A stretch of 64,000 nt of DNA, taken from NCBI GenBank assembly GCA_016186955.1, contig JACPKP010000004.1, positions 5,942 through 69,941 of the forward strand, given 5' to 3'. A model generated the notes under the pieces. The model had not been told where the DNA came from. It did not search any database and worked only from the letters and a program-made list of their open reading frames with translations. The translations under genes and the position numbers were made by a program. Positions 16,470-30,106 of this stretch are shown in pieces (position 1 is the first letter of the stretch; each line of letters begins with the position of its first letter). The DNA is from Candidatus Daviesbacteria bacterium. Lineage in GTDB: Bacteria > Patescibacteriota > Microgenomatia > Daviesbacterales > UBA10151.

Positions 16470-16868
16470 ATGAAGAAAAGAAATAAGAAATACGAGCTTC
16501 CCGACTTTGCAGACGATATATTCATGCCTGACGATTTAATGAAGGTTCTTGTGGAACGTAATGGGTGTAAATACTTCTGGGGTATACCTTACAGAATTTA
16601 TAAATCTAGTCGATTTCAGAACATGGAAGAACTTTATAAAGACGAAGACTTAGAGGCACTAGGCGGGGTTTTGTTAGATATTCTCGTAGTTAATAAGTAT
16701 TCAATCGACTTCAAACAAAAAACGGGCGTACAGAAGCTACAAGTGGTCGTGCGGTCATCGGAAAGCGAAGATAAACAACTACTTCATAAGTTGGCTACTG
16801 GGATTCGAGCAAACGATAAACCATTGAATAGAGATAGCATTCCAGGAACTAATAACGACAATGAATAA
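16470..16868 (+). CDS. hypothetical protein
   Basis: 132-aa ORF immediately upstream of, and overlapping, the recombinase gene. Confidence 0.4.
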   Translation: MKKRNKKYELPDFADDIFMPDDLMKVLVERNGCKYFWGIPYRIYKSSRFQNMEELYKDEDLEALGGVLLDILVVNKYSIDFKQKTGVQKLQVVVRSSESEDKQLLHKLATGIRANDKPLNRDSIPGTNNDNE

Positions 16869-18598
16869 ACAACAAACCGTACCACTTCGAGCCGCAGTTT
16901 ACCTTCGTGTATCTACGGACGACCAGATAGAAAAATACGGCATACCTTTACAGAAGGCCGCCGTTGACGCGGTAGTTAATTCTAAGGGAAAACTAGACGA
17001 CGGTTCACCAGCTATGGTACTGGCTGGCGAACCGTACATTTATAAAGACGAAGGGATTAGTGGCACAACACCACTAGAAGAACGACCAGGTTTCGTACTA
17101 TTGAAGGAAGATATTGAAAACGCGCCAGGTGGCGCAAAACCCTTCGATATTGTGGCCGTTTATCGTATCGACAGATTCGCCCGAAAACTAAAAATTCTTT
17201 TAGAAGTAATTGACTACTTCGAGGCACATGATATCCAGTTCATTTCGGCTAACGAAAGCATAGATACTTCTACACCGTTTGGTAAGGCCATGCTCGGTAT
17301 TATTGGTGTGATAGCTGAACTCGAACGGGAAACGACCAAAGCCAGAACACAGGCGGGTAAAGAACAAGCTATCGAACGCGGTGTCTACATGGGTGCAAGT
17401 GCGCGATACGGTTACATTAAGAATAAAGATAAGCGTCTTGAAATCTTCCCACCAGAAGCCGACGTAGTTCGTAACATTTTCGAAATGTTTGTGGTCGAAA
17501 AAAGAAACACGCAGCAAATTGCTGACCGTCTTACAGATAAAAAAATTCTTACCCCATTACCTTCTGCACTTCATTATGGGAAAAGAACAACTGGCAAAAC
17601 AAAGGTTAATGACCTTTATTTCTGGCGGGGTTCCACAGTTAGAGATATTGTAAAAGACGAAGTATATCTGGGAATCTATTACTACAATAAAAACCAAGGA
17701 AGCAAACGCCTAGATAGGTCTTTATGGAAGGAATCACCTTTACTTACTGTCTGGCCTATTAAAATGCCACGCTTGCTACGACGCCAATTCTGACCGCGAC
17801 CCGCTAAACTGGACGGGTACGAGTAAAGTTATAAAGAAAAACAACAAGCGTGTGTATTATTACCAATGCGGCGCAAAAAATACCAAAAAATACTCGACTG
17901 TCTGTAAAGCTATACCCTTCCCAGCGGACGAAATCGAACAATTTGTAACAGGCTTTGTAAAAGACCTTCTAAGCGACCCTGAAAGTGTCTATAACCATGT
18001 TAATTCCCTTCAATCGACTAAGGCTAAGAAACGACAGCTAGAGAAAAAACAGTCCGAATTAACAAAGCTATTTAATGAACTTCCGCGCCGACGTCAAAAT
18101 ATACAGCGAATGTATAAACGCGGCGACATTGGCGACAGTGAATACGACAAAGAAATGGAAGGTATAAAGGCTAAAGAAGTTGAATATAAGACAGATTTAG
18201 GGGCAATACAATTACAAATCGGCGAAAGTAAATTGTCAGATATTTATGCTCGCACACTTAAATTGTTTGCTAAGAAGTACAAACCATTCTTAGACGGCCT
18301 AATGACTGACAGACAAGAAGTATCAGAACTGATACACCTAATAGTCGATAGAATCCATGTCTACACACGTAAGGCGACTAAAAACGACAAAATAGCGGGT
18401 CGTAAGAAGGAAGACCAGGTCATCCCGTACCAAGTGAGGATAGACTTACGCTTACCACAAGACATGATGAAGCGGTTCTCCCAACAAGGGAAGTTCGAAG
18501 TCAAAAATGCTGAATTGAGCGGGAGACGGGATTCGAACCCGCGGCCTTCTCCTTGGGAAGGAGACATACTACCACTATACTACTCCCGCAATAAATAA
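16861..18598 (+). CDS. large serine recombinase, apparently frameshifted (two ORFs: 16861..17793 frame 1; frame 2 open 17714..18598)
   Basis: N-terminal AAVYLRVSTDDQ catalytic-serine motif and the resolvase/recombinase domains lie in ORF1. The zinc ribbon (LKCHACYDAN...YYYQCGAK) and coiled coil lie in frame 2, which is already open from 17714. The 3' end reads through tRNA-Gly on the opposite strand. Confidence 0.75.
18518..18589 (-). tRNA. tRNA-Gly (anticodon CCC)
   Basis: Reverse complement gives GCGGGAG-TA-GTAT-AGTGGTA-GTAT-G-TCTCC-TTCCCAA-GGAGA-AGGCC-GCGGG-TTCGAAT-CCCGT-CTCCCGC-T. Confidence 0.85.
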
Positions 18599-18733
18599 AT
18601 TATACCAAATCCGCAAAATACTATTTTGATATCTTATGATATCTTGACAATTTTTCTCAAAAACCCTAATAATGAAATATCGCATCAATTGTTCAAAGGC
18701 CTTGAATAATAGCGACAAAAGGGGGTGAGTTAA

Positions 18734-19042
18734 TTGGCAGAAAGAAATTTGGAGAATGTAGAAGTTTCTGAAGAGGCTGTTACAGACTATGCAAAAAAAG
18801 GGTTTGGTTTGGTAGGTGAGTACGCTTGGACTCTTGCAAAATATGGAGCGGGTTTAGGGGTTTCAGGATGGGGATTAGAAAAAGGTTACAACTTTGTTGC
18901 TGGACTTCCAGTACTTAGTAATGTAAACACCTTGATTGGTAGTATCGACCATGCCCCAGCAGTCATAGCTGTTTTAGCAACCGGCTTTGCCGGATGGCGA
19001 GCGAAGAAGCATGTAGATAACTGGTTGGAGAAACATGCTTAA
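18734..19042 (+). CDS. hypothetical small Gly/Ala-rich protein
   Basis: 102-aa ORF followed by a clear intrinsic terminator. Confidence 0.4.
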   Translation: MAERNLENVEVSEEAVTDYAKKGFGLVGEYAWTLAKYGAGLGVSGWGLEKGYNFVAGLPVLSNVNTLIGSIDHAPAVIAVLATGFAGWRAKKHVDNWLEKHA

Positions 19043-19098
19043 AGTGTAAGAAACCCTGAATAATAGCTAATATTTTAGGAGTTTCTGGAAATTATTTA

Positions 19099-19132
19099 AA
19101 ATACCCCTCACTGCAGTGCGGGGTATTTTTTA
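19099..19132 (+). terminator. rho-independent terminator
   Basis: ATACCCC-TCACTGCAGTG-CGGGGTAT hairpin followed by a run of T. Confidence 0.6.
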
Positions 19133-19191
19133 TTGGAGGAAAGATATGTATCATTCTGGAGCGTACTGAACTAAAACTGTCACCCTGAGTG

Positions 19192-19479
19192 TTAACGAAG
19201 GGTATAAGCCAAATCATTCCACTCATCGTTGAATTGATTAATCAATTTATCTTTTTTAAATCTTGTCCAACCCTTTATTCTCTTTTCTCCAGCTATTGCT
19301 TGATTCACATCAGAAAACTCTTCATAGTAAACAAGTTTATTTAAGTTATATTTTTCAGTATATCCATAAATTAATTTACGTTTATGTTCCAATACTCTTC
19401 GTTCTAAGTCATTAGTGATACCAACGTAAAGCATTTTGTTATTCTTTGTTGTGAGTATATAAACATAATAACTCTTCAT
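19192..19479 (-). CDS. GIY-YIG nuclease family protein (small, COG2827-like)
   Basis: YVYILTTKNNKMLYVGITNDLERRVLEHK carries the GIY...YIG and R...E motifs. 95 aa. Confidence 0.8.
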   Translation of the reverse strand: MKSYYVYILTTKNNKMLYVGITNDLERRVLEHKRKLIYGYTEKYNLNKLVYYEEFSDVNQAIAGEKRIKGWTRFKKDKLINQFNDEWNDLAYTLR

Positions 19480-19556
19480 TTAGTTATATTCTTCGCTTCG
19501 CTCAGAATGACAAGAGAGTTCTTTAATGATAAAAAAACTACATAATAACACCTGAT

Positions 19557-20189
19557 TTATCTGGGTATCTTAAGGGTCGTGCCAACTTCTATGGCGTCTG
19601 CATTGGATAGGTTGTTTGCCTTTGCTATTTTTTCATACATATATATATCACCATAAGCCCTGCCGGCTATAGTTGAGAGCCAATCCCCTTTGACAACTGT
19701 GTAGGTATCACCTGTAATCTTTTCACCCCAAATAGTTTGGTTGATGGCTCCGCCTGTTCCCTGGCCGTTTGTAGGTGTTTTAGCCTCCTCCAGCTTGGGT
19801 ATGTCCAAAACCTGACCAACCTCAATCTTATTCTCATCAGCCAGTTTATTGGCCTCAACAAGCTTAGAATATTTATATCCGTCATTGTAGTAATTTTGTG
19901 CTATCAGAAAAAGGGTATCACCTTCTTTAATAGTATATTGGCCAGGTAAGTCCTCTTTTTTGACATCTGCAGTTTGTTCATCTGTCTGGCCTGATGGTCC
20001 CAGGCTTCCTTCTGGCTTGTTGAAGTAGTTAAAGATTAAAATTCCCAAAACTATAACTATTAAGGTTCCGAGCACCAGGTTTAGGAATGAATTATTTTTT
20101 TCCAGATCTGTCTGAATTTTATCAAAAAAGCTCTCATCCTGTGAGCTTTTTGCGGAATAGCGTCTTACTGCCTGTTTTTTCTTTGGCAC
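19557..20189 (-). CDS. LysM domain-containing membrane protein (two LysM repeats)
   Basis: N-terminal TM helix. YTIKEGDTLFLIAQ...IEVGQVLDIP and YTVVKGDWLSTIAG...IEVGTTLKIP are LysM signatures. Confidence 0.8.
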   Translation of the reverse strand: MPKKKQAVRRYSAKSSQDESFFDKIQTDLEKNNSFLNLVLGTLIVIVLGILIFNYFNKPEGSLGPSGQTDEQTADVKKEDLPGQYTIKEGDTLFLIAQNYYNDGYKYSKLVEANKLADENKIEVGQVLDIPKLEEAKTPTNGQGTGGAINQTIWGEKITGDTYTVVKGDWLSTIAGRAYGDIYMYEKIAKANNLSNADAIEVGTTLKIPR

Positions 20190-20264
20190 TTTTTAGATCC
20201 TTGGTTGGCAGACTCAACTGAGTCATATTTAACCCATTTTTAGAACATTGTCAAGAGGGCAATT

Positions 20265-20700
20265 TTGCAAAAGTTTAGCGCCCTCATGGTTTTCCACTGT
20301 TTAGTGGCCTACCCGAGGGCGCTTAAAGCTATGCACCTGATATTGCGGAATAAAAGATGTAGCTTGCCTGCCACTAGGCAGGTGTTAGTTCTTGTTCTTT
20401 TGGAGCATAGTCTCCGCAGGATACCCCTGCGAGCTCATGCTCCAACTTGTCCTGCTCGGCAAGCCAACGCAACCAGCGCAAATGAGCTGGGTTCGGCTCG
20501 CGGGGGGGCACGGAAAACATCTGCAGCTCTGCGTCGTATCTGTTCATTTCCTCCTCCAGAATCCGTTCGTGACTCCGCTAAATCAAGGTGCACCCGGGTT
20601 TCCCCGGAAATACAAAGGAAACAAAGCCCAGGTTGCAATCAGCCCACCCTTGTTTCTAATGTAATACGTATTATATCAGAATATGTCAAGAAACACAAAC
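20265..20700. other. G+C-rich ORF-free segment; candidate structured non-coding RNA (identity unresolved)
   Basis: Strikingly G+C-rich relative to its flanks. Only arginine-rich junk ORFs appear in all frames. Several strong hairpins are present (e.g. GGAGCAT...CCGCAGG-ATACC-CCTGCG...ATGCTCC and GCCTGCC-ACTA-GGCAGG). Confidence 0.3.
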
Positions 20701-20764
20701 TATAGGATTTTAGTTTTACATTGCGTTGAAAGAAAAGGGTGGAATTGTTACAATACTACCACTT

Positions 20765-20820
20765 GGGACCGTAGTGAACTGGTTATCACGGTCCGATGGA
20801 CATCGGACAGATAGCGGGTT
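20765..20820 (+). pseudogene. tRNA-Asp 5' partial duplicate (pseudo-tRNA)
   Basis: Its first 26 nt are identical to the intact tRNA-Asp 330 nt downstream (GGGACCGTAGTGAACTGGTTATCACG). The anticodon arm is diverged, the identity AGATAGCGGGTT is shared, and the sequence then diverges with no T-arm or 3' acceptor strand. Confidence 0.6.
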
Positions 20821-20840
20821 GATTGGTTACCAGGTGAAAT

Positions 20841-21104
20841 ATGGGAATAGTTTATATTTTAAGATCGTTAGTAAACGGAAGGTTTTACATTGGGTCGACG
20901 AATGATTTAGAAAGGAGATTTGGAGAACATAATTTAGGAAAATCAAAAGCGACAAAATTTACAGCGCCGTTTGAATTAGTCTTTAGACAGGAATATGATT
21001 CGTTAAACAAAGCCAGACGAGTTGAAAATAAGTTAAAAAAATTTAAGAGCAAGATAATTTTAGAAAAGATAATAAATGATAGTTTTATAACTTTGGGACC
21101 GTAG
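20841..21104 (+). CDS. GIY-YIG nuclease family protein (small, COG2827-like)
   Basis: IVYILRSLVNGRFYIGSTNDLERRFGEH. 87 aa. The stop codon TAG lies inside the 5' acceptor/D region of tRNA-Asp. Confidence 0.8.
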   Translation: MGIVYILRSLVNGRFYIGSTNDLERRFGEHNLGKSKATKFTAPFELVFRQEYDSLNKARRVENKLKKFKSKIILEKIINDSFITLGP

Positions 21105-21167
21105 TGAACTGGTTATCACGTCTCCCTGTCACGGAGAAGATAGCGGGTTCGATTCCCGTCGGTCCCG
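21095..21167 (+). tRNA. tRNA-Asp (anticodon GTC)
   Basis: GGGACCG-TA-GTGA-ACTGGTTA-TCAC-G-TCTCC-CTGTCAC-GGAGA-AGATA-GCGGG-TTCGATT-CCCGT-CGGTCCC-G. Confidence 0.9.
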
Positions 21168-21291
21168 CCTAGGCACTAAATTTTAATATTTCAGTCAGTT
21201 TTCCTGAAATTTGAAGTTAATAGTGTTCGAATTACATCAAGCGAATATTTAGTAAAATTCTGCAGAAATTAACTTTATTTTTAGTAAAAAG

Positions 21292-21579
21292 TTAATAATC
21301 TTCAACTGTTCTTATTCTTCCATCAGCTCTATGTATATATACGGATGTACCTTGGTTTTGAGCAATTGATTTAGCTCGATCTATAGCTGCCTTTTGAGTT
21401 TTAAAAATATCACTTGCTCTTTCTGCTCCACCACGAATTACTACCCATGAATTATCTTTATGTATAACATGGTGGTTTTGTTTACCTCTCTCGACAGCTT
21501 GTTTATAAGCCCTTATCTGAGGATTATTTTGATTTGTCTTATATATAACTTTTTTCATATTAAAATTTAGACTGAACAA
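21292..21579 (-). CDS. DUF2188-like small protein
   Basis: HVIHKDNSWVVIRGGAERASDIFKTQKAAIDRAKSIAQNQGTSVYIHRADGRIR matches the DUF2188 pattern W.V...GA.RAS..F.TQ.EAI..A..IA.NQ...L.IH..DG.IR. Confidence 0.5.
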   Translation of the reverse strand: MFSLNFNMKKVIYKTNQNNPQIRAYKQAVERGKQNHHVIHKDNSWVVIRGGAERASDIFKTQKAAIDRAKSIAQNQGTSVYIHRADGRIRTVEDY

Positions 21580-22162
21580 ATGAAATTATATCATTTTCTG
21601 ACATTTGAATTTTATTTAAATAAGCAATGAATTCTGTTCTGTTCCCAAATTCAATCTTGGCAAACTGCATTGTTTGGTTCTCCGTATAAGAACTTTCTAC
21701 AATGTTTATTGCTATTTGAGGATATTTTAGAGTAATCCACAATAACGTTTTTCTAGCACCAGAATGAGTTTTGTAAAAGTGAGAATCTTTAAATTTTCTA
21801 TCACGACTTAAAAAAGCAATAAATGCTCTTTTAAGATCATCAGGTATAATAGCATAAATGATAGGCTTTTTCTTTAATTTAAAAACTTCATTTAATTTAA
21901 TTCTTGCACCTTCCTCTGTAGAAAGCGTTGCATCAAATACAATACTTTTTTTACGGCTTAGTTGTGATGATAAAAACTCTGTTTTTCCAGATGCTGCGCC
22001 ACCATTTAAGAAGATTATGTTGTTGAACTTATGCTTTTTTAATTCTTCATAAAACAACTTATCTGCTTGTTTTGCTGACGCTGTATGGAATAACTCAGCC
22101 TTCTTGGGTAAATAACCAAACATAGTTTTCTTGATTTCATCTGCTGAAATGATAACGACCAT
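21560..22162 (-). CDS. zeta-toxin-like P-loop kinase
   Basis: Walker A NGGAASGKTEF within a zeta-toxin-like layout. 200 aa. Its 3' end overlaps the DUF2188 gene by 20 nt. Confidence 0.5.
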   Translation of the reverse strand: MVVIISADEIKKTMFGYLPKKAELFHTASAKQADKLFYEELKKHKFNNIIFLNGGAASGKTEFLSSQLSRKKSIVFDATLSTEEGARIKLNEVFKLKKKPIIYAIIPDDLKRAFIAFLSRDRKFKDSHFYKTHSGARKTLLWITLKYPQIAINIVESSYTENQTMQFAKIEFGNRTEFIAYLNKIQMSENDIISFVQSKF

Positions 22163-22361
22163 ATGTTAGTGAGTGAAATATAGCATAAAATATACTAAAG
22201 GAAGATCATTAGATTTGAATTACCATTTGTTACAAAGTTTTATGCTGATAAATTAAGCTGGAATATAGGTGTTCCAAATTTAAGCCTTCAAGCCCGCATA
22301 GGCTCGACAAGTTAATATTTACCAATTTTTAGTGAATTTTGAAGCTAAAAGTGTTCAAATC

Positions 22362-23094
22362 CTATTTAACGACAATTGAGTCGCCTGGGGAGATTATATA
22401 ATCTGCTGGTCTACGTGGGGATCTAAACTCTACCATGAAATCAGATTTCTGGTCACCTGATTTTATTAAATCTTGAATTAATTTCTCCTCGTCAAGAATA
22501 GAAAAATTATTATCCCCACCAAAATACCGAGCACAACTTGATTGATAACCTAAATCTTCAAGCATATTATTGGCTCTATCTTTAGCAGGGTAGTACCCAG
22601 AATGAGAACCCCCACAAAAAACTACCACTTTCGAATTTTGATCATTCTCCAATCTATCTCTAATAATTTCTGTCCATTGTCTATTCCTTTTACCAAATGT
22701 AGCTGACTGACTAGAGGCTAGGTATTCCTCGTTAGAAATATCCAATCCGTGTATATTCATCCCTAATGATTTAGCTAAAGAGTAAATTTCAAAATATTTA
22801 TCTCCCATACTAGGATCTTTATCATTCCAATGATCCTGTAAATATTGCCTTACTTTTTCTGAATCTGTAGTATCAAATCCCTTTGGTAACATTTCTAAAG
22901 CAAGATCTGTTACCCCCCCCCTCGGCCAATCTCTCTAGAGCACCTTTGAAGGCTTCTTTATCTGTAAAAGAGGTATGGCTATCGTTGATGAACAAAACTC
23001 TATTATTTCCAAGAATTTTACCATAATCAACTGGTTCTGGGTCACCAACTTCTTTTGTGCCTAATCCCAGTTTCACCTCATCATCCATATTCAA
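22362..23094 (-). pseudogene. hypothetical protein interrupted by a frameshift at a C9 (coding-strand G9) homopolymer
   Basis: ORFs 22873..23094 and 22362..22892 are adjacent, run in the same direction and overlap at the poly-C tract 22913-22921 (coding-strand GGG Gly codons). Joined they give ~245 aa. Confidence 0.55.
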
Positions 23095-23256
23095 ACTATA
23101 CCATAATCTGATCCTACATTTATTTGTTGCAAAGTTTTGTACTGATATAATAAACTTTGATATAGGTGTTCAAAATTTTTACCTTTGAGCCCGCTAGACT
23201 AACTGTGGGTGTCTTATAGTTGACTTCTGGGATCAATTTATGTTAGGATTGCTTTT

Positions 23257-23640
23257 ATGAAAGAGTATGTAAGACATCCTTTAGGCTCTCCATCTGGTGA
23301 ACCATTTGATGACAGAACTCAGGTTGAGCTGGAAGAAAAACCTACTCAACTAATGATGGCGACACACAATAACGTCGGCTTAGATGTGAGCAATCTATTA
23401 CAAACATTAGGTTTTGTGCAGGTTGAAGGAGAATCGGCAGGTGATTTGTTTTTAAGGAACACCCCAAAGAAAATTTTTAGTAGGGATTGGGCTATTTCTT
23501 ATCAAAAGGCAGAAAAGGGAGAAAAACGGGATCTTAACATTTTTACAATTTATCTCAATCATGGATCAGAGGTAGGTTATATGGATTTTCTGAGACAGAT
23601 TACAAACAGACAAGGTAGATACTGTGTTTTCTTCCCCTAA
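23257..23640 (+). CDS. hypothetical protein (cassette)
   Basis: 127-aa ORF about 60 nt downstream of a conserved repeat copy. No motif recognised. Confidence 0.4.
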   Translation: MKEYVRHPLGSPSGEPFDDRTQVELEEKPTQLMMATHNNVGLDVSNLLQTLGFVQVEGESAGDLFLRNTPKKIFSRDWAISYQKAEKGEKRDLNIFTIYLNHGSEVGYMDFLRQITNRQGRYCVFFP

Positions 23641-23870
23641 ATACAATTGGATTGCTTGAGACTCAACTCAAACGGGTGCCCTTTTCATGGGTAAAAAATT
23701 TCAAACTCTGCAAAGTTTTATACTGCTCCACTAAACTCTTATAAAGGTGTTCTAAATTTAAACTCTCAAGCCCCTCAATATTTTACGTTGCAAAAAATTA
23801 AAGAATATGGTATATTATTGTCATAAACGCCTCAGCTTGTGCGAAAGCCCGCTGAGGTTTTTTGTAATAT

Positions 23871-24461
23871 TTGTTTATGTCTAAGTGCATACTATTTATT
23901 GATGGCGAGAATTTTATACATAAAATTGAAGAGGTTTTAAAACAAGAGGGTATAAATAATAACAAAAAAGATTTAGCCTTAATAAACCTAAATAAACTTT
24001 TTAAAGAAGCATTGCAAGGCTTTGATTTTTCCAGAAAGATATTTTATGCCGCCAGACTTCACTTACACCCGGATACTAAAAAGAAATCAGAAGAACTTAT
24101 CAAACTCCAGCGCAAACTGCGCAACAATCTTATAAATCAGGGGTATGAATTCATTATCGCTGGGAATGTTAGAGCTCAAAAGGTGGGGAAGAGTGTGGTT
24201 TTCAGAGAAAAAGGTGTGGATGTAAAAATTGGTGTTGATATGACCTCGCTGGCTTGTGATAAAAAAATTGAAACTGCTATTCTTTGCAGTTCGGACTCAG
24301 ATTTACAACCTGCAATTACAGAACTTAAAGAAAGAGGTATAAAAGTAATCTATTTAGGTTTTGAAAACAATCCCAATAAAGGACTTACCTTTACCACAAA
24401 CAGAACAATCCTGTTAAGAAACTCTGAAGTAATTGAGGCTTGTCAAAACAGAAAAGATTAA
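23871..24461 (+). CDS. NYN/LabA-like (PIN-fold) domain protein
   Basis: N-terminal ILFIDGENF and the later ILCSSDSDLQPAI match the NYN-domain signatures (hhFIDGENh and hhSGDSDF). Confidence 0.6.
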   Translation: MFMSKCILFIDGENFIHKIEEVLKQEGINNNKKDLALINLNKLFKEALQGFDFSRKIFYAARLHLHPDTKKKSEELIKLQRKLRNNLINQGYEFIIAGNVRAQKVGKSVVFREKGVDVKIGVDMTSLACDKKIETAILCSSDSDLQPAITELKERGIKVIYLGFENNPNKGLTFTTNRTILLRNSEVIEACQNRKD

Positions 24462-24763
24462 ACTACACATAACTGTTGTAAAGCTCTATACTGTTCAACT
24501 CAACCCTGATACAAGTATTCCAGATTTGAACCCTCAAGCCCGCAATAAACCTATAGTTGCATTTTTATTTAAAATCTGTTACTATGCCTTGACTAAAGAA
24601 TGAGCTCAGATTAATTGTTATCCAAAGTTTATTTCTTTTGTTTTAATTCTCTTGCACTTTTAAATAACCTCTTAATACTACTGTGCAATTAGTGCATCTT
24701 AATTTTTGGTGTATTAATTGTGCAGTAGTACTGCATAAAATAATTTGTGCTAAGGAGGAACTG

Positions 24764-25546
24764 GTGAGAAAGGATCTTAAGTTTGAGGTATCCGAAGGAT
24801 TGACATTGTCGCTTGAAGATCTTTGGGCGAAAGTGTCTATCCGAACTAGCCCAAAGGGAATTGCAACAGTGGTTCTTGAGGGCGAAGAGAAGTTTATTAA
24901 CCAGGTGAAAGTGGAGCACCCAAACCCCTCTGAACTAACTCTCAAGGGTGAACAGGGTGGCAACACTGTCATTATGGGAGGCGGTTCCTCTATCGTCCTA
25001 GGAGGCCGGGGCAATGTTGTGATCGGCGGAAATATCCGAGGCAGTGTGATCTCATCGGGTAATCTCGTCATCATCAACGGCCGAGTGGTCTCTGGTGGCA
25101 AGGACGTGACTGTAACTTTGGGCGATGAAATGCTCAAGATTAAGATCACAGTCCCGGAAGGTACTGATCTCTCCAGCCATAGTGTTGAGGAACTCGATTC
25201 CAATGGACTTCGAGGAAAACTCTCACTTTCATTAAGCGGCCAGCAGCAAGCTGTTGTTGGTTTTGCCAAGAAGGTTAGGGTTTCCTGCAGCGGTCAGTCT
25301 GAGATTCAAGTTACCGAAGCTAGCGGAGATTTGAATGTCTCCACTAGCGGACAATCTTCTGTTGCCATCACAGGCAGCTTTGAAGATGTTGAGACTCACA
25401 GCAGTGGCCAAAGTCACATTGGAATCAACGGCAATTGCCGTAATTTCGAAGGTGACTCATCTGGCCAAAGCTCAATTTCGGTTTTGGGATCTGTCTCTGG
25501 CCGTGTGCGAAAGCACTCAAGCGGTCAAAGCAATATCCGAGTTTAG
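24764..25546 (+). CDS. beta-helix repeat protein with reiterated SGQS units (DUF4097/DUF2807-like putative adhesin head)
   Basis: Likely GTG start 6 nt after the AAGGAGG RBS (the track ORF starts upstream at 24683). Repeats: CSGQSEIQV, TSGQSSVAI, SSGQSHIGI, SSGQSSISV, SSGQSNIRV. Markedly G+C-rich relative to neighbours. Confidence 0.55.
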   Translation: MRKDLKFEVSEGLTLSLEDLWAKVSIRTSPKGIATVVLEGEEKFINQVKVEHPNPSELTLKGEQGGNTVIMGGGSSIVLGGRGNVVIGGNIRGSVISSGNLVIINGRVVSGGKDVTVTLGDEMLKIKITVPEGTDLSSHSVEELDSNGLRGKLSLSLSGQQQAVVGFAKKVRVSCSGQSEIQVTEASGDLNVSTSGQSSVAITGSFEDVETHSSGQSHIGINGNCRNFEGDSSGQSSISVLGSVSGRVRKHSSGQSNIRV

Positions 25547-25567
25547 TTGAGAGTTCGGCAAGAGAAA

Positions 25568-25607
25568 CCGCCCTAAGGGTTATAAACCCAAGGGGCGGAT
25601 TTTTTTG
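25568..25607 (+). terminator. rho-independent terminator
   Basis: CCGCCCTAAGGGTT-ATAA-ACCCAAGGGGCGG followed by T7. Confidence 0.65.
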
Positions 25608-26198
25608 TATATTTAAATATTGTTTAAAATGTAATTTGGGTACGCGTCCATTAAGGTATTTAATAGAGCTAATGATTCATATAAACCTACATTGCTCCCG
25701 CCTTCGTCTCGCTGAAGCTCGACTACGGCGAGGTAAACCCGTAAGTAGTCGAGCGTAAGCGGAAAGTATGAATTATGTGTATTTCTTGTTATGTTGGGAT
25801 GGAAAAATCTATACTGGTTCAACTAATAACTTATCCTTTGAACTTGAAAAATATTTTAAATCAGGTTCAGGAAGAGCATTTATGAAAAAACATAAACTGG
25901 TTGATCCTTAAAAATTTGCTATATTTTCCCCGTTTAACCCTGAGCCTGTCGAAGGGTCGATCCCGTATTAATCCTATAACTTGACTTTGGGTTTAAATTT
26001 GTTAAAATAATCCCACTTTAGAAATAAACCCAGATTAATTGTTATCTTGTTTTTGTTTCTTTTGTATGTTTTTTGCACATTAATTTTAGAATTTCAAATC
26101 CAATCCTTAAGCAAAGGTTTAAAGCAGGTAAAATAGCTTACCTTTTTTAAGTCTTTGCTTAGGTGGAAGCGGAGATAATAAACCGGAGAGTTACGTAA

Positions 26199-26612
26199 AT
26201 GACACATGCAGTGAGCGAAGTGTCTACTGAACAGTGCCTGCACTGGAAGGAAGAGGTGGCATTTATTGCCTCCATCAACCCATCCTTTTTGCGGGATGCA
26301 TGGCTAAACGCCATGGGTGGGCTAAACCCAGAGTACAATCTTCTTGAGATGCTTCTAAAGCCTCTCGAGGGACAACTCTGGTGGCATCTGACCCGCCATC
26401 CTCAGAAATGCAAATACCAAATGATCAAGCTTCTCGAGGAAAGGTTGGATCAGTTCCGTAACTGCCATTACTGGAGGAAACTCCTAGAAATAGCTGTGAC
26501 TCCAGGGATGGAACGGAGTGATTCTCATTTGAAGGATTGTGTGTTTTGTCAGAGGGACCTGCGGCAGATGAAGCCGAAGCTCCCTTACTACAAAGAGTTC
26601 TATAAACGCTAA
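26199..26612 (+). CDS. hypothetical protein (cassette; Cys/His-rich)
   Basis: 137-aa ORF ending with CVFCQ. Followed by the terminator GGGCGGT...ACCGCCCTTTTT at 26662-26692. Confidence 0.4.
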   Translation: MTHAVSEVSTEQCLHWKEEVAFIASINPSFLRDAWLNAMGGLNPEYNLLEMLLKPLEGQLWWHLTRHPQKCKYQMIKLLEERLDQFRNCHYWRKLLEIAVTPGMERSDSHLKDCVFCQRDLRQMKPKLPYYKEFYKR

Positions 26613-26820
26613 GCTAATGGGGACCACCTTCCCCCGAATGCTTAGTTCTAAGTGCTCATTCAAGGGCGGTTCTATATGGACCGCCCTTTTTATATCCCAA
26701 AACCTTGTAGGGTTTTATATTGAATCTTCAAACTCTTATAAAGGTGTTCCAGATTTGAACCCTCAAGCCCGCAAATAACTATAAGTTGACCCTTAAAGCA
26801 AGAAGTGTTATTATTGGTTC

Positions 26821-27750
26821 ATGGCTATTGATGTTGAACCTAAAGATCTTGGAAAAGTTATCCAGCTTGTTGCCAAAAGCGATGGTTGGAAAAGACAAGA
26901 AACAAGATTTAGTATAGATAGAACAGTTCTAATTACAGGCAATCCTAGCCCTGAAATCACTCATCAAACACCTGCTGAACTAATACAACCCTTAAGAGCA
27001 GCTTGGCTTACTACGAAAGATAAAAGACCTAATGATTTTAATGGTCCAAAAGTTGCTGTTAGGAGACTCGCTGTTGTTGATGGTATCTTGCAAACAGATG
27101 CTGTTGAAACTGATTACTTTACTTTATGGGGATTACCACAAGCCGAAGAATCAAAGTCCTATTTTATGGAACATGAGCAACAGGTAGTTATCAATAGATC
27201 TTTCTTCCCGAATGCTTTATATGAAACTAATATTCCTTGGGGTATTTGTACACATAATACTCTGCTTGATGCAAATGGAGATATACTGTTTGTCATTCGT
27301 TCCATGTCTCAAGGATTTAATCAGGGAAGAGTCTCTGTTACTGAAGAGGAACAAATGGAGCCAGATGATTCTAGCCCTTTTTTTGCTTCACATAGAAGTT
27401 TTACCGAGGAGTTAGGTTTATTTGTTCCAGAACGAAGAATCTCTTTAGTTGGAGTAGCTGTGGAAAAAGGGGCTGCTTATCCAGCATATCATTATATTGC
27501 CGAAACAGATACATTGGCAAAAAACATTGTTGATAGTTGGAGGCAGGCGAGGGACTATAATGAACACACAGCGCTTTTTGTTGTACCTATGACACAAATT
27601 GATAATTGGATGAATTCAGATGATATAAACCCAGAAATATGGCAAGCACATTTCTTAGCAGGCAATATTGCTCCTGATGCAAAATTGAGGCTGCATAATA
27701 CTTCTGCCTGGAGATTAGAATTAGCAAGAAGATTTACTCAATCTGTATAA
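26821..27750 (+). CDS. hypothetical protein (cassette)
   Basis: 309-aa ORF 35 nt downstream of repeat copy 5. A weak Nudix-box-like RSFTEELGL was seen but is not convincing. Confidence 0.4.
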   Translation: MAIDVEPKDLGKVIQLVAKSDGWKRQETRFSIDRTVLITGNPSPEITHQTPAELIQPLRAAWLTTKDKRPNDFNGPKVAVRRLAVVDGILQTDAVETDYFTLWGLPQAEESKSYFMEHEQQVVINRSFFPNALYETNIPWGICTHNTLLDANGDILFVIRSMSQGFNQGRVSVTEEEQMEPDDSSPFFASHRSFTEELGLFVPERRISLVGVAVEKGAAYPAYHYIAETDTLAKNIVDSWRQARDYNEHTALFVVPMTQIDNWMNSDDINPEIWQAHFLAGNIAPDAKLRLHNTSAWRLELARRFTQSV

Positions 27751-27910
27751 TAATTAACATTTGATCCTTGTAAAATTTGATATTGTTAGACCAAACTTTT
27801 TAATCTTATAGCGTATAGTTGATTTTTTAAGGGGTTTTTGCTACAATTTTCCAGTTTCTTTTGAAACAGCACATTAAGGCTGGAATAGCCACAGAAGCAA
27901 GGAGGATACC

Positions 27911-28207
27911 GTGGAGGTTCTGTTAGCAGGAGCCGCCATTTGGGCGGTTTGTGGGGCGCTGGCGTATGGCTTAACGCTAGCTTACTTTCAAATGAAGTAC
28001 CCGGCGATAGCCTACCCGTGGCGTCATGCGGATACTTTGGTTGCATTATTGGTAGCAGTTTTTGGTCCGTTTGGACTCATAGTTACATTATTAAGCAGTG
28101 AGGGCTGCAGGTATGGCCTGCGGTATAAGCCTCTTTCCGATAAGGAAAGCTGGGCAGCTTTCCAGAAGAAGTACCCAGGGTTGTCAAAGGAGGATTGGTT
28201 GCGCTAG
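27911..28207 (+). CDS. small membrane protein
   Basis: 98 aa with two TM helices. Followed by the terminator GGGCGGCCC-GTTA-CGGGCCGCCC plus T-run at 28221-28250. Confidence 0.45.
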   Translation: MEVLLAGAAIWAVCGALAYGLTLAYFQMKYPAIAYPWRHADTLVALLVAVFGPFGLIVTLLSSEGCRYGLRYKPLSDKESWAAFQKKYPGLSKEDWLR

Positions 28208-28291
28208 TTCCGGCAAGTGCAGGGCGGCCCGTTACGGGCCGCCCTTTTTCATGCGTAAAAGTGTAAAACAGATCTGTGTTAAAATAATTCC

Positions 28292-30106
28292 ATGGGTGAG
28301 GGTAAATTTTCCAACCGGCAGGTTGTCAAACTGCTCAGGTCTGTTGCGGCAGCGCTGACTCTTAAAAAAACTAACCCATTTCAAATCAGGGCTTATGAAA
28401 ATGCAGCAGATTCAATTGAACACCTTGACAGTGAAATTAAGGATGTTTGGGAAGAAGGCAAGATTGACGGTGTTCCCGGTATTGGCAAGAACCTGCAGGA
28501 ACATTTAAGTGAGCTTTTTAAAACAGGGGTAGTTAAACATTTTGAGTCACTTATGCGTGGAGTAAACCCGGTAATCTTTGACCTTTTGGATATCCCCGGC
28601 ATTGGGCCTAAAACAGCCCAGGAACTGGCTGAATTGGGCATTAAGGACTTAAACCATCTTAAGAGTGAAATCAAAAGCGGAGAGATCATAAAAAAGGGTT
28701 TTTCCGGAAAGATAGCTGAAAAAATTATGTCCGGCCTTGAGGAGTTGTCAGGCAGGGGCGGAAGGATGCTTTTGCCTTATGCTTCAGCCCAAGCGCAAAG
28801 GATTTTGGCGTACCTGCAAAAAAGCCCTTTGGTTTTGAAGGCAGATCCATTGGGTAGTTTAAGAAGGCAGGTTGCTACAATTGGCGATTTAGATTTCTCG
28901 GTAAGTGCCAAAAGCAGCAAAGAAGTTGTGGATTATTTTATCAAAATGCCTGGGGTGAGTCGAATCATAGATCATGGGACAAATAAGGCTTCTGTGGTTT
29001 TAAATTCAGGTTTGCAGGCTGATTTGTTGGTAGGGGAACCTGGAAGCTATGGGGCTCTACTGCAGCATTTTACAGGTAGTAAAAACCACAATATACATTT
29101 GAGAAGTATTGCAAATACAAAAGGATATTCTTTGAGTGAGTATGGGCTAAAAAAAGTCAAAAGTCAAAAGTCAAAAGTCAAAAATGGGGAAGTTTTGCCT
29201 TGCAAAACTGAAGATGATTTGTATGGGATACTTGGGATGGAGGTGCCGCCTCCTGAGATTAGGGAAGATACAGGGGAGATTGAAGCAGCCATCGCCCAAA
29301 AACTGCCAAAGCTGGTTGGGTTTAAAGATATCAAAGGGGATTTGCATACCCATTCAAACTTTCCCATGGTTAGCCCTTCACATGGGCCAGGTGCAAATTC
29401 CATAGATGAGATTATAACCAAAGCAAGAGCGTTAGGATATGGATATATTGGCATTTCAGACCACCCGCCAGGTTTCAGAACTACTACCAAGGATCAAATT
29501 GTTAAAATTCTGGAAAAGAGGACAAAAGTTATCCAAAATCTTAAAAAGAGCCTGCCTGCCGACCTGCCTGACGGCAGTCAGGGCAGGCAGGGTACAAAAA
29601 GTATCCGGGTACTTAATGGCCTCGAAGTTGATATTTTGGGTGACGGAAGTTTAAGCGTTCCTGATGAGATTTTAAAAACCCTAGATTACTGCATTGCCGG
29701 AATCCACTCGGGACACAGGGGTACTAAAGAGCAAATTACCAAAAGACTTGTGAAAGCCCTGGGAAATCCTTATGTGGATATAATTTCCCATCCTACGAAC
29801 AGGCTTTTAAACGAAAGAGAATCATCAGAAGCGGATTGGGAGGAGATTTTTAAGCTTTGTGCTAAAAATCAAAAAATTCTTGAGGTTAATGCTTACCCAA
29901 ACCGGTTGGATTTACGTGATGATTTGGTCAGGCAGGCTTTAAGTTTTGGGTGTAAGTTCATCATCGATACGGATGCCCATGAGGTTGCCCAGATGGAAAA
30001 TATGAAGTTTGGAGTTTCAGTTGCCAGACGTGGATGGGCAGAAGGGAAAGATATTATAAATTCTTGGGACTGGACAAAATTTGCAAAATGGTTTAAAATT
30101 AATTAA
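28292..30106 (+). CDS. polX: DNA polymerase X family protein with C-terminal PHP domain
   Basis: N-terminal 8-kDa/HhH region ([22 protein letters not shown]) and a C-terminal PHP domain (DLHTHSNF...GISDHPPG...IIDTDAHE). Confidence 0.85.

Follow-up and report, generated by a model that had tools for sequence, protein, structure and literature searches.

How does a small nuclease gene come to lie between a partial and an intact copy of the same tRNA gene, with its stop codon inside the intact one? The question is raised by a 64,000-nucleotide (nt) stretch from Candidatus Daviesbacteria bacterium (GenBank assembly GCA_016186955.1, contig JACPKP010000004.1, positions 5,942 to 69,941 of the forward strand), which is called the window here and is numbered from its first nucleotide. 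In it, an open reading frame (ORF) for a GIY-YIG nuclease of 87 amino acids (aa) is wedged between a truncated and a complete tRNA-Asp gene. An earlier note, made from the letters alone, took this arrangement for a homing or insertion footprint that targets the tRNA gene while preserving a functional copy. From the comparisons with related loci described below, the ORF and its tRNA-Asp are judged to be one copy of a widespread cassette, found mainly in the candidate phyla radiation (CPR, Patescibacteria) and consisting, as far as the alignments tell, of a minimal Slx1/UPF0213-type GIY-YIG gene and a pseudo-tRNA module with a GC-rich CCGAY/RTCGG hairpin. Selfish nuclease genes associated with tRNAs are already known in general. 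This particular cassette appears to be undescribed within the limits of the literature searched, in which no description of tRNA-coupled GIY-YIG cassettes or of a pseudo-tRNA hairpin was found. The only relevant items in it concern T4 SegB (PMC2330249), the GIY-YIG superfamily (PMC1564403) and insertion sequences of CPR rRNA genes (PMC11270868). The attribution of the window to Candidatus Daviesbacteria agrees with a protein match of 100%.

Anatomy of the tRNA-Asp locus

The features of the locus, in order along the forward strand, are as follows.

20726-20754, + strand: sigma-70-like promoter (TTGAAA-17-TACAAT, extended TG); no other site within 20150-21350 scores better as a promoter
20765-20790, + strand: pseudo-tRNA segment A, corresponding to tRNA-Asp nt 1-26 (acceptor 5' strand and D arm), 26/26 identical to 21095-21120
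20791-20808, + strand: conserved palindromic hairpin of 18 nt, GTCCGATGGACATCGGAC, recognised in the sequence and by the motif and position that it shares with relatives
20809-20824, + strand: pseudo-tRNA segment C, corresponding to tRNA nt 44-55 (variable loop and T-stem 5' strand, AGATAGCGGGTT, 12/12 identical) followed by GATT
20832-20837, + strand: Shine-Dalgarno-like AGGTGA, 3 nt before the ATG, a putative site read from the sequence
20841-21104, + strand: ORF for the 87-aa minimal GIY-YIG nuclease, predicted to be of the bacterial Slx1/UPF0213 type (Pfam PF01541, E=1.8e-16)
21095-21169, + strand: intact tRNA-Asp(GTC) with no encoded CCA (ARAGORN; Rfam tRNA, 64.8 bits)

The partial tRNA copy of 26 identical nt that had been placed 330 nt upstream was confirmed by a repeat search, in which 20763-20790 and 21093-21120 were found to be an exact 28-nt repeat, made up of the 26 tRNA nucleotides and the preceding TT, at a spacing of 330. 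The chance expectation of an exact 28-mer repeat within 3 kb is about 1e-10 by our own arithmetic. The same search returned a second exact repeat of 12 nt, AGATAGCGGGTT, at 20809-20820 and 21138-21149 with a spacing of 329. The segment between the two repeats had been described as a diverged anticodon arm; it is the 18-nt palindrome, and it takes the exact place of the 17-nt anticodon arm of the tRNA (nt 27-43). The palindrome is perfect, with 8-nt arms and a central GA, and one strand of it can fold into a stem of 7 pairs with a GGAC loop. The 12-nt identity was likewise correctly reported, but it is not followed by nothing further, as had been thought: the GATT at 20821-20824 still matches tRNA nt 57-60 given the deletion of C56, and the upstream copy ends inside the T-loop. 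In all essentials, then, the locus was correctly described in the earlier note. Outside the hairpin the upstream copy and tRNA-Asp are identical at 38/38 positions.

The coordinates of the ORF (20841-21104) and of the tRNA (21095-21169) agree with the claim that the 87-aa ORF terminates inside the tRNA, the stop codon TAG at 21102-21104 being tRNA-Asp nt 8-10. The final codons GGA CCG TAG (Gly-Pro-stop) correspond to tRNA nt 2-10, and the G of the prior TTG is tRNA nt 1. The tRNA itself is uninterrupted and stays intact, the direct repeat of its segment flanks the insert, and the GIY-YIG gene is the only ORF between the repeats, the cassette containing neither a tyrosine nor a serine recombinase. 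No group I intron ribozyme was found around the ORF. Rfam scans of 17500-22500 at E<=1 and of 20190-20850 at E<=10 returned only two tRNAs and no intron, ribozyme or known small RNA.

The assignment of the protein was deduced from its motifs and from profile comparisons. It has the attributes of the GIY-YIG superfamily, namely the motifs, the conserved catalytic Tyr, Arg, His and Glu, and a minimal single domain; in an alignment of 35 homologous sequences, Y16, G18, R26, H30 and E62 were invariant and Y5 was nearly so. Profile matches to PDB entries 1zg2 (E=7.5e-11) and 1ywl (E=5.4e-8) ranked ahead of those to I-TevI (1mk0, E=6.5e-4) and to eukaryotic SLX1. TIGR01453 was matched over the first ~32 positions only, and no second domain was found by Pfam in the 87-aa protein, which is composed of the catalytic domain alone with no DNA-binding domain. 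On these matches, the protein is a minimal bacterial Slx1/UPF0213-type nuclease without a DNA-binding domain. The UPF0213 proteins BH0048 (1zg2) and EF2693 (1ywl; PMC1564403) have the same domain in ~90-100 aa and no auxiliary domain. In a 2006 survey (PMC1564403), the bacterial Slx1-like branch is the minimal GIY-YIG variant and includes one fusion to a TrmH-like tRNA methylase; for the UPF0213 family that survey describes no tRNA coupling, pseudo-tRNA or hairpin, and its function is given as unknown.

The promoter at 20726-20754 has 10 of 12 consensus matches and ends 10 nt before the pseudo-tRNA, and no terminator-like site was found between it and the end of the tRNA. It is presumed to be the native tRNA-Asp promoter, which would now drive the pseudo-tRNA, the ORF and the tRNA. 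Since the promoter lies upstream of the pseudo-copy and no terminator intervenes, the tRNA would be made from a pseudo-tRNA, ORF and tRNA precursor, and the cassette and the tRNA would thus share one precursor transcribed from the tRNA promoter. The minimum free energy (MFE) fold of the whole 411-nt unit gave z = -2.5, and the tRNA itself was not folded as a cloverleaf.

Recurrence in relatives and an empty site

The family to which the protein belongs comprises 2,450 representative clusters at E<=1e-10, a few of them with two fused copies. A sample of 80 loci from species-representative GTDB genomes, mostly Patescibacteria with some Omnitrophota, Elusimicrobia, Melioribacteraceae and others, was analysed with ARAGORN and our own scripts and gave 78 complete ORFs. 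A same-strand tRNA abuts the ORF in 64 of these 78, and 17 anticodons are represented. The ORFs were assigned as follows.

Class 1, 49/78 ORFs: same-strand tRNA start within -30 to +25 nt of the stop
Class 2, 15/78 ORFs: same-strand tRNA end within -5 to +30 nt of the start
Other, 14/78 ORFs: arrays, or the order pseudo-copy, ORF, pseudo-copy, tRNA

In class 1, which is the class of the window, the order is promoter, tRNA nt 1-26, hairpin, nt 44 to ~57, ORF and intact tRNA. The offset is exactly -10 in 25 loci, where U8-A9-G10 of the tRNA serves as the stop; of the 49 stop codons, 39 are TAG. For about three quarters of the 49 loci the upstream local match to the downstream tRNA beat all 100 shuffles; typically it spans nt 1 to ~50-59, and 1-9 nt separate its end from the ATG. 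Class 2 is mirrored, with the intact tRNA followed by the ORF, nt ~18-26, the hairpin and nt 44-76 (variable loop, T arm and acceptor 3' strand). The ORF starts with an ATG that is adjacent to the 3' end of the tRNA or overlaps it, and the TAG of the D-loop 'GGTAG' in the partial copy is its stop. The ORF is always positioned between the pseudo-tRNA and the intact tRNA, and pseudo-parts were found on both of its sides in many loci. For the Lys, Thr, His and Pro clades, the copy reaches only to nt ~25 and the hairpins are located in the D-loop. Because the same anatomy recurs at many tRNAs, the arrangement was deduced to be a family trait rather than a local accident.

The coupling is also visible in the protein sequences. 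The C-terminal LGP, LGS or MGP of homologs with 50-74% identity represents the tRNA 5' end in translation. Many N-termini in the family are over-extended and translate tRNA sequence, and several of these over-called N-termini read MYIGQV or VTGSNPV, corresponding to the hairpin and T-arm in translation.

Some loci of the sample have more elaborate structures. Three 74-nt tandem units with a hairpin in each were found at L006 (2690-2920), and repeated units of an ORF fragment and the 3' part of a pseudo-tRNA-Pro at L079 (1-1000), with no intact tRNA in view. Two successive ORFs, each after a tRNA or a pseudo-tRNA, are present at L014 (3280-3560) and L074 (2800-3400).

Dozens of genomes have the palindromic replacement, with a shared core, beside Asp, Ala, Gly, Val, Arg and other tRNAs; in alignments for the five named here, the palindrome YCCGAYG-NN-CRTCGGR stands in place of the anticodon arm. 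Extra hairpins with the CCGAY/RTCGG stem were found at several loci in the D- or T-loops or replacing the T arm. In 62 distinct hairpin instances, which were picked for hairpin formation and in which the pairing is partly by construction, pairs 3 to 5 were C-G in 62/62, C-G in 59/62 and G-C in 56/62, respectively. The outer pairs 1 and 2 (G-C/T-A/C-G) and pairs 6 and 7 (T-A/C-G) covary, and the central 2 nt are unconstrained. Unbiased support for the hairpin is provided by the alignment-defined cases at class-1 loci. Conserved half-sites around a free centre are as expected for a site read by a symmetric protein, and the covariation in more distant clades shows that being a hairpin or palindrome is itself a preserved feature. 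A function of the hairpin through Hpy188I-like TCNGA sites was considered and dropped, as these are absent from the CCCGA variants. In a neighbour-joining tree, the protein clades track the tRNA isoacceptor and the hairpin variant.

The pseudo-copy also tracks its own tRNA. In 30 of 36 loci it is closer to its own tRNA (mean 0.81; clean cases 0.86-1.00) than to the isoacceptor elsewhere (0.70), and its acceptor strand is identical to that of the tRNA in 26 of the 36. A neutral relic would have decayed, and the pseudo-copy is therefore deduced to be either homogenised by gene conversion or kept by selection. A passive reading of the upstream fragment as a duplicated piece of the target, the term used in the earlier note, is not supported, as the hairpin replacement recurs and the copy tracks its own tRNA over long divergence. 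In some two-sided loci (L005, L016, L035 and L041), the two pseudo-parts agree mutually, and their differences from the intact tRNA are stem changes that are compensated, which suggests from their sequences that a former tRNA gene was split there by the ORF and its tRNA.

Comparison with relatives lacking the insert had been proposed as a check, two ordinary tandem tRNA genes being the outcome that would speak against an insertion. Such a relative was obtained from a metagenome scan with the first 42 nt of the window tRNA-Asp, which yielded two contigs of one organism (L081 and L082). They have the gene order tRNA-Val, tRNA-Gly/Thr, LysM gene, tRNA-Asp and polX in common with the window, and their tRNA-Asp is 75/75 identical to that of the window. 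In L081/L082 the promoter stands directly before a single tRNA-Asp, with neither pseudo-copy nor ORF upstream, and no tandem pair was seen in relatives. The cassette is present at tRNA-Asp in the window and in loci L001 and L003 and is absent upstream of it in L081/L082. The footprint proposed in the earlier note therefore stands as far as an inserted element and a functional tRNA left in place are concerned; classical homing is awkward, for reasons given below.

A different UPF0213-type GIY-YIG gene of 85 aa is present in L082 at 7055-7377 (and also in L081), 66 nt downstream of tRNA-Asp. In front of it are a long hairpin (an inverted repeat of ~49 nt that is nearly perfect) and GGCCCGCCA, which copies part of the acceptor 3' end. 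This downstream insertion is missing from the window, as 21206-21232 matches L082 7377-7403 at 24/27 positions, above all 200 shuffles. The insertions are thus reciprocal, and each genome serves as the empty site for the insertion of the other. The tRNA-Val(CAC), tRNA-Thr(CGT) and tRNA-Gly(CCC) genes are 76-80% identical between the window and L081/L082, and the tRNA-Asp comparison of these two was the single outlier against 28 between-locus comparisons. The identical tRNA-Asp suggests lateral exchange, conversion or co-conversion of this one tRNA gene.

Explanations for the cassette

With moderate confidence and no more, we read the cassette as a recombination-dependent selfish element, old and slowly moving, that is housed in a tRNA transcription unit and whose hairpin would be the cis site of its nuclease. 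The anatomy, its recurrence at 17 anticodons, the presence or absence at tRNA-Asp, the conserved catalytic residues and the tracking of the tRNA by its pseudo-copy are shown by the comparisons; the way in which the cassette moves is inferred from them. Entry into cognate tRNA genes, in the past and occasionally at present, would proceed by recombination of the element's tRNA segment with the chromosomal tRNA, the tRNA-derived segments acting as homology or attachment arms. The recombination may be homing-like or Campbell-like; in either case the tRNA would remain intact and a tRNA segment would be left as a direct repeat. The position of the ORF between the intact tRNA and the hairpin-bearing copy makes the tRNA segment a direct repeat around the hairpin and ORF, which fits a single crossover between the element's tRNA segment and the chromosomal tRNA and fits equally homing with co-conversion of the flank. 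The hairpin is proposed to be a cis element recognised by a structure- or sequence-specific nuclease, and it may also break the homology between the pseudo-copy and the tRNA. The cassette borrows its start or stop codon from the tRNA, which it leaves undestroyed. Cleavage by RNase P at tRNA +1 would remove the stop codon of the ORF, and in class 2 the 3' processing would remove or expose the start codon. Translation of the nuclease and maturation of the tRNA would then be mutually exclusive for each transcript, a built-in throttle by which the nuclease would be kept low. Hallmarks of a selfish element are the tandem arrays and degenerate copies at L006, L014, L074 and L079 the three GIY-YIG genes or remnants within the 64-kb window, and the 2,450 representative clusters of the family, some of which contain two fused copies.

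Several observations weigh against this reading. At the syntenic Asp loci the GIY-YIG protein is 55-71% identical at the amino acid level, like the flanking LysM and polX genes. An identical protein (P0009) is present in 17 contigs, from several samples, and has one gene context in all 10 places listed. The associated tRNA was not more conserved than neighbouring tRNAs in the 28 between-locus comparisons, which do not support a general hitch-hiking of the tRNA with the cassette. No evidence of recent movement was found where it was sought, through identical proteins and through divergence. As the context of P0009, the divergence of the GIY-YIG protein and the conservation of the tRNAs all show no recent movement, most of the history of the cassette is deduced to be vertical, and a domesticated host function is therefore possible. 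The protein is a catalytic domain only, and to our knowledge a hydrolytic GIY-YIG enzyme is unable alone to rejoin DNA. The occupied allele keeps an intact tRNA, to which simple target-site immunity is inapplicable. The role assigned to the hairpin is putative: the selection of the 62 instances contributes to their pairing, and G-T and A-C mismatches are equally rare in them (5 versus 4), which does not distinguish RNA from DNA.

The cassette has thus been resident for a long time and gives little indication of having jumped recently. The synteny of LysM gene, cassette, tRNA-Asp and polX is common to the window, L001 and L003. In L018 and L020 the unit of tRNA-Asp and cassette lies between LysM and polX in the opposite orientation, which suggests an inversion or re-insertion of the unit. 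A phage vehicle was considered and is unsupported, as a protein-profile scan of viral contigs gave N-terminal motif matches to ordinary phage endonucleases only and no close relatives; the N-terminal matches from PADLOC and PHROGs were all of a generic 'homing endonuclease' kind.

Some known kinds of element resemble the cassette in part. Integrase-type elements that target tRNA genes (prophages, integrative and conjugative elements and genomic islands) preserve a functional tRNA and leave a partial tRNA direct repeat at the other end, and their boundaries lie in the anticodon, T-loop or D-loop regions, as in the cassette. Unlike them, the cassette has no recombinase, is ~330 nt in length and has a hydrolytic nuclease as its sole gene; furthermore, the 5' portion is duplicated (class 1) and the copy is remodelled with a hairpin. 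The IS200/IS605 TnpA and REP/RAYT systems are similar in having a very small nuclease gene and conserved subterminal hairpins, with hairpin-adjacent sequence that matches the target. Their HUH/Y1 chemistry proceeds through covalent intermediates, and it is single-stranded DNA that moves; a GIY-YIG enzyme is hydrolytic, and we know of no transposition of this type by one. GIY-YIG ORFs have also been reported in non-intron insertion sequences of CPR rRNA genes, in a paper whose main text makes no mention of tRNA (PMC11270868). These occur in the same organisms, likewise place a GIY-YIG gene in genes for structural RNA and likewise have no group I/II intron ribozyme; the rRNA genes are interrupted by the insertions, whereas the tRNA of the cassette is uninterrupted and the ORF is fused to its end.

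A classical free-standing homing endonuclease would cut the uninterrupted tRNA-Asp, and repair of the break would copy the gene in, the upstream fragment being a displaced or duplicated piece of the target and the hairpin being co-converted merely for interrupting the repeat and stabilising the insertion. We regard this as unlikely. It is consistent with the GIY-YIG domain and its intact active site, with the empty site in L081/L082, and with an identical tRNA-Asp among other tRNAs at 76-80%, as would be expected from co-conversion of the flank. It also fits the limits of the pseudo-copies, which consistently fall in blocks conserved in all tRNAs, the T-loop where a copy ends and the D-loop where one begins. 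The precedent is T4 SegB, a GIY-YIG homing endonuclease of a tRNA gene cluster (PMC2330249). Like the cassette, its gene lies between or next to tRNA genes without an intron, and its preferential inheritance together with the flanking tRNA region is a further likeness. The difficulty is that the occupied-allele tRNA is 75/75 identical to that of the empty allele; short targets would persist there without immunity, and only a site spanning the upstream flank and more than 26 nt of the tRNA would differ between the alleles. With the whole target still present in the occupied allele, plain homing is improbable. At 87 aa and with no DNA-binding module of the kind that gives a long recognition site, the protein is moreover unlike the known homing GIY-YIG enzymes. 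SegB itself is reportedly much larger, with DNA-binding modules and a home in a phage, and is said to have no pseudo-tRNA copy, no conserved hairpin and no start or stop codons in common with a tRNA. Both the hairpin and its extra copies show conservation and are found inserted in loops or arms only, and there is no sign of recent spread.

A domesticated, host-beneficial module acting at the RNA level is about as unlikely. On this account the pseudo-tRNA and hairpin would be a leader or trailer that controls the processing, stability or translation of the nuclease mRNA, for example through an alternative cloverleaf with the other half of the tRNA, and the nuclease would serve DNA repair, like Slx1. 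In its favour are the long vertical persistence under purifying selection and the promoter upstream of the pseudo-copy. Since the start and stop codons overlap the tRNA ends, translation must be disturbed by RNase P and by 3' processing; and, as in functional RNAs, extra hairpins occur in loops with the stems kept. The TrmH-like tRNA methylase fusion of a bacterial Slx1 homolog (PMC1564403) points the same way. The alternative cloverleaf is itself unsupported, as differences in the acceptor strand of the pseudo-copy break the pairing with the tRNA 3' strand in 11 of 16 changes and only 5 of 16 keep it; the fold of the whole unit was also without an alternative cloverleaf, which is weak evidence. 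An element that has several copies at different tRNAs, forms tandem arrays, leaves truncated copies and is patchily distributed has the look of a selfish one rather than of one that serves its host. A hairpin that lies upstream of the ORF in class 1 and downstream of it in class 2 is no simple translational operator.

Homology-guided, structure-specific cutting is doubtful to a greater degree. Here the pseudo-tRNA, as RNA or as a DNA strand, would pair with the cognate tRNA gene to the left and to the right of the swapped arm, and the non-homologous hairpin and anticodon arm would extrude to give a four-way (Holliday-junction-like) junction that is resolved by the Slx1-type nuclease, with crossovers exactly at the arm boundaries leading to class 1 or class 2 insertions. 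The hairpin does replace exactly nt 27-43, itself a hairpin, between flanks identical to the tRNA, and the match between the pseudo-copy and its own tRNA is maintained. The two mirror architectures are precisely what crossovers at one or the other arm boundary would yield, and the lineage is that of Slx1, whose eukaryotic members cut branched DNA (PMC1564403). The proposal is purely inferential, and the clades with D-loop hairpins, in which the copy stops at nt ~25, would be left unexplained by it. We know of no GIY-YIG enzyme that is so guided. If this explanation held, the pseudo-tRNA and hairpin would be a targeting device for the minimal nuclease, and the cassette would represent a homology-programmed, structure-specific nuclease and recombination system with tRNA genes as landing pads.

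The decay of an ordinary tandem tRNA-Asp duplicate around an unrelated small ORF, for which the commonness of tandem tRNA duplicates and the missing 3' half of the upstream copy could be cited, deserves almost no credence: the same three-part anatomy and hairpin occur at many tRNA identities in at least 60 independent genomes, the identity of the copy outside the hairpin is 38/38, against 40-70% to which the ORF family has diverged, and the recurrent hairpin replacement together with the single tRNA, rather than a tandem pair, in L081/L082 refutes it.

Neighbouring features and meaning for the family

A second GIY-YIG paralog of 95 aa is encoded on the - strand at 19192-19479 (region 19179-19510). 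The earlier note had asked whether it also abuts a tRNA-like sequence, and it does not: it has no tRNA-like flank and is bracketed instead by inverted copies of a different hairpin repeat. One copy, GTCATTCTGAGCGAAGCGAAGAAT, is just upstream of the ATG, and the other, GTCACCCTGAGTGTTAACGAAGGGT, at 19179-19203 on the + strand, overlaps the stop; this hairpin differs from that of the cassette. A third GIY-YIG remnant at 25768-25950 is internally deleted (47 aa, MNYVYFLLCWDGKIYTGSTNN...EKYFKSGSGRAF), is preceded by a GC-rich, repeat-like stretch and is followed at ~25928-25950 by the same ACCCTGAG...CGAAGGGT hairpin. This second type of hairpin at the other paralogs hints that a small GIY-YIG gene plus a cognate hairpin is a general module. 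A 17-nt similarity of 20713-20729 to the YIG-coding part was considered as the remnant of an older copy; tblastn gave no protein-level match, and the similarity was treated as chance.

A large serine recombinase is encoded at 16861-18598 in two ORFs, one with Resolvase and Recombinase domains and one with a zinc-ribbon part, and its 3' end runs antisense through tRNA-Gly(CCC) (18517-18589, - strand). It looks like an integrative element, possibly a frameshifted remnant, at a tRNA-Gly gene; it belongs to that locus, 2 kb from the cassette. Between the LysM gene and the cassette lies a ~400-nt GC-rich segment (20265-20650; 52-64% GC versus ~35% around it), which is absent from L081/L082, where the spacer is ~100 nt. 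This segment matches nothing in Rfam and does not resemble the other loci.

Downstream, ~7 kb (21170-28300) separate tRNA-Asp from the polX-like gene; several ORFs without annotation and one for a DUF2188 protein lie there. The tRNA-Asp cassette of L003 has polX almost immediately after it, and the distance from the tRNA to polX is only ~1.2 kb in L082; the stretch in the window is probably an island inserted downstream of tRNA-Asp. A 74-nt intergenic stretch within it (23121-23194) is 85% identical to L082 8178-8251, the surroundings not being similar. It lies just upstream of polX in L082 and 5 kb from polX in the window.

If the description given here holds, thousands of genes annotated as 'GIY-YIG nuclease family protein' in CPR and uncultured bacteria would be parts of a cassette rather than stand-alone repair genes. 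The uncharacterised bacterial Slx1/UPF0213 family would thereby gain a concrete function and candidate substrates, and mis-annotations such as ORFs extended through tRNA sequence and partial tRNA 'genes' would be explained. The nuclease and its hairpin would form a compact pair that may be of use as a tool. The cassette would also represent a new route by which a selfish gene settles on essential tRNA genes, through common codons and a common promoter, and would have a bearing on the evolution and exchange of tRNA genes in streamlined genomes.

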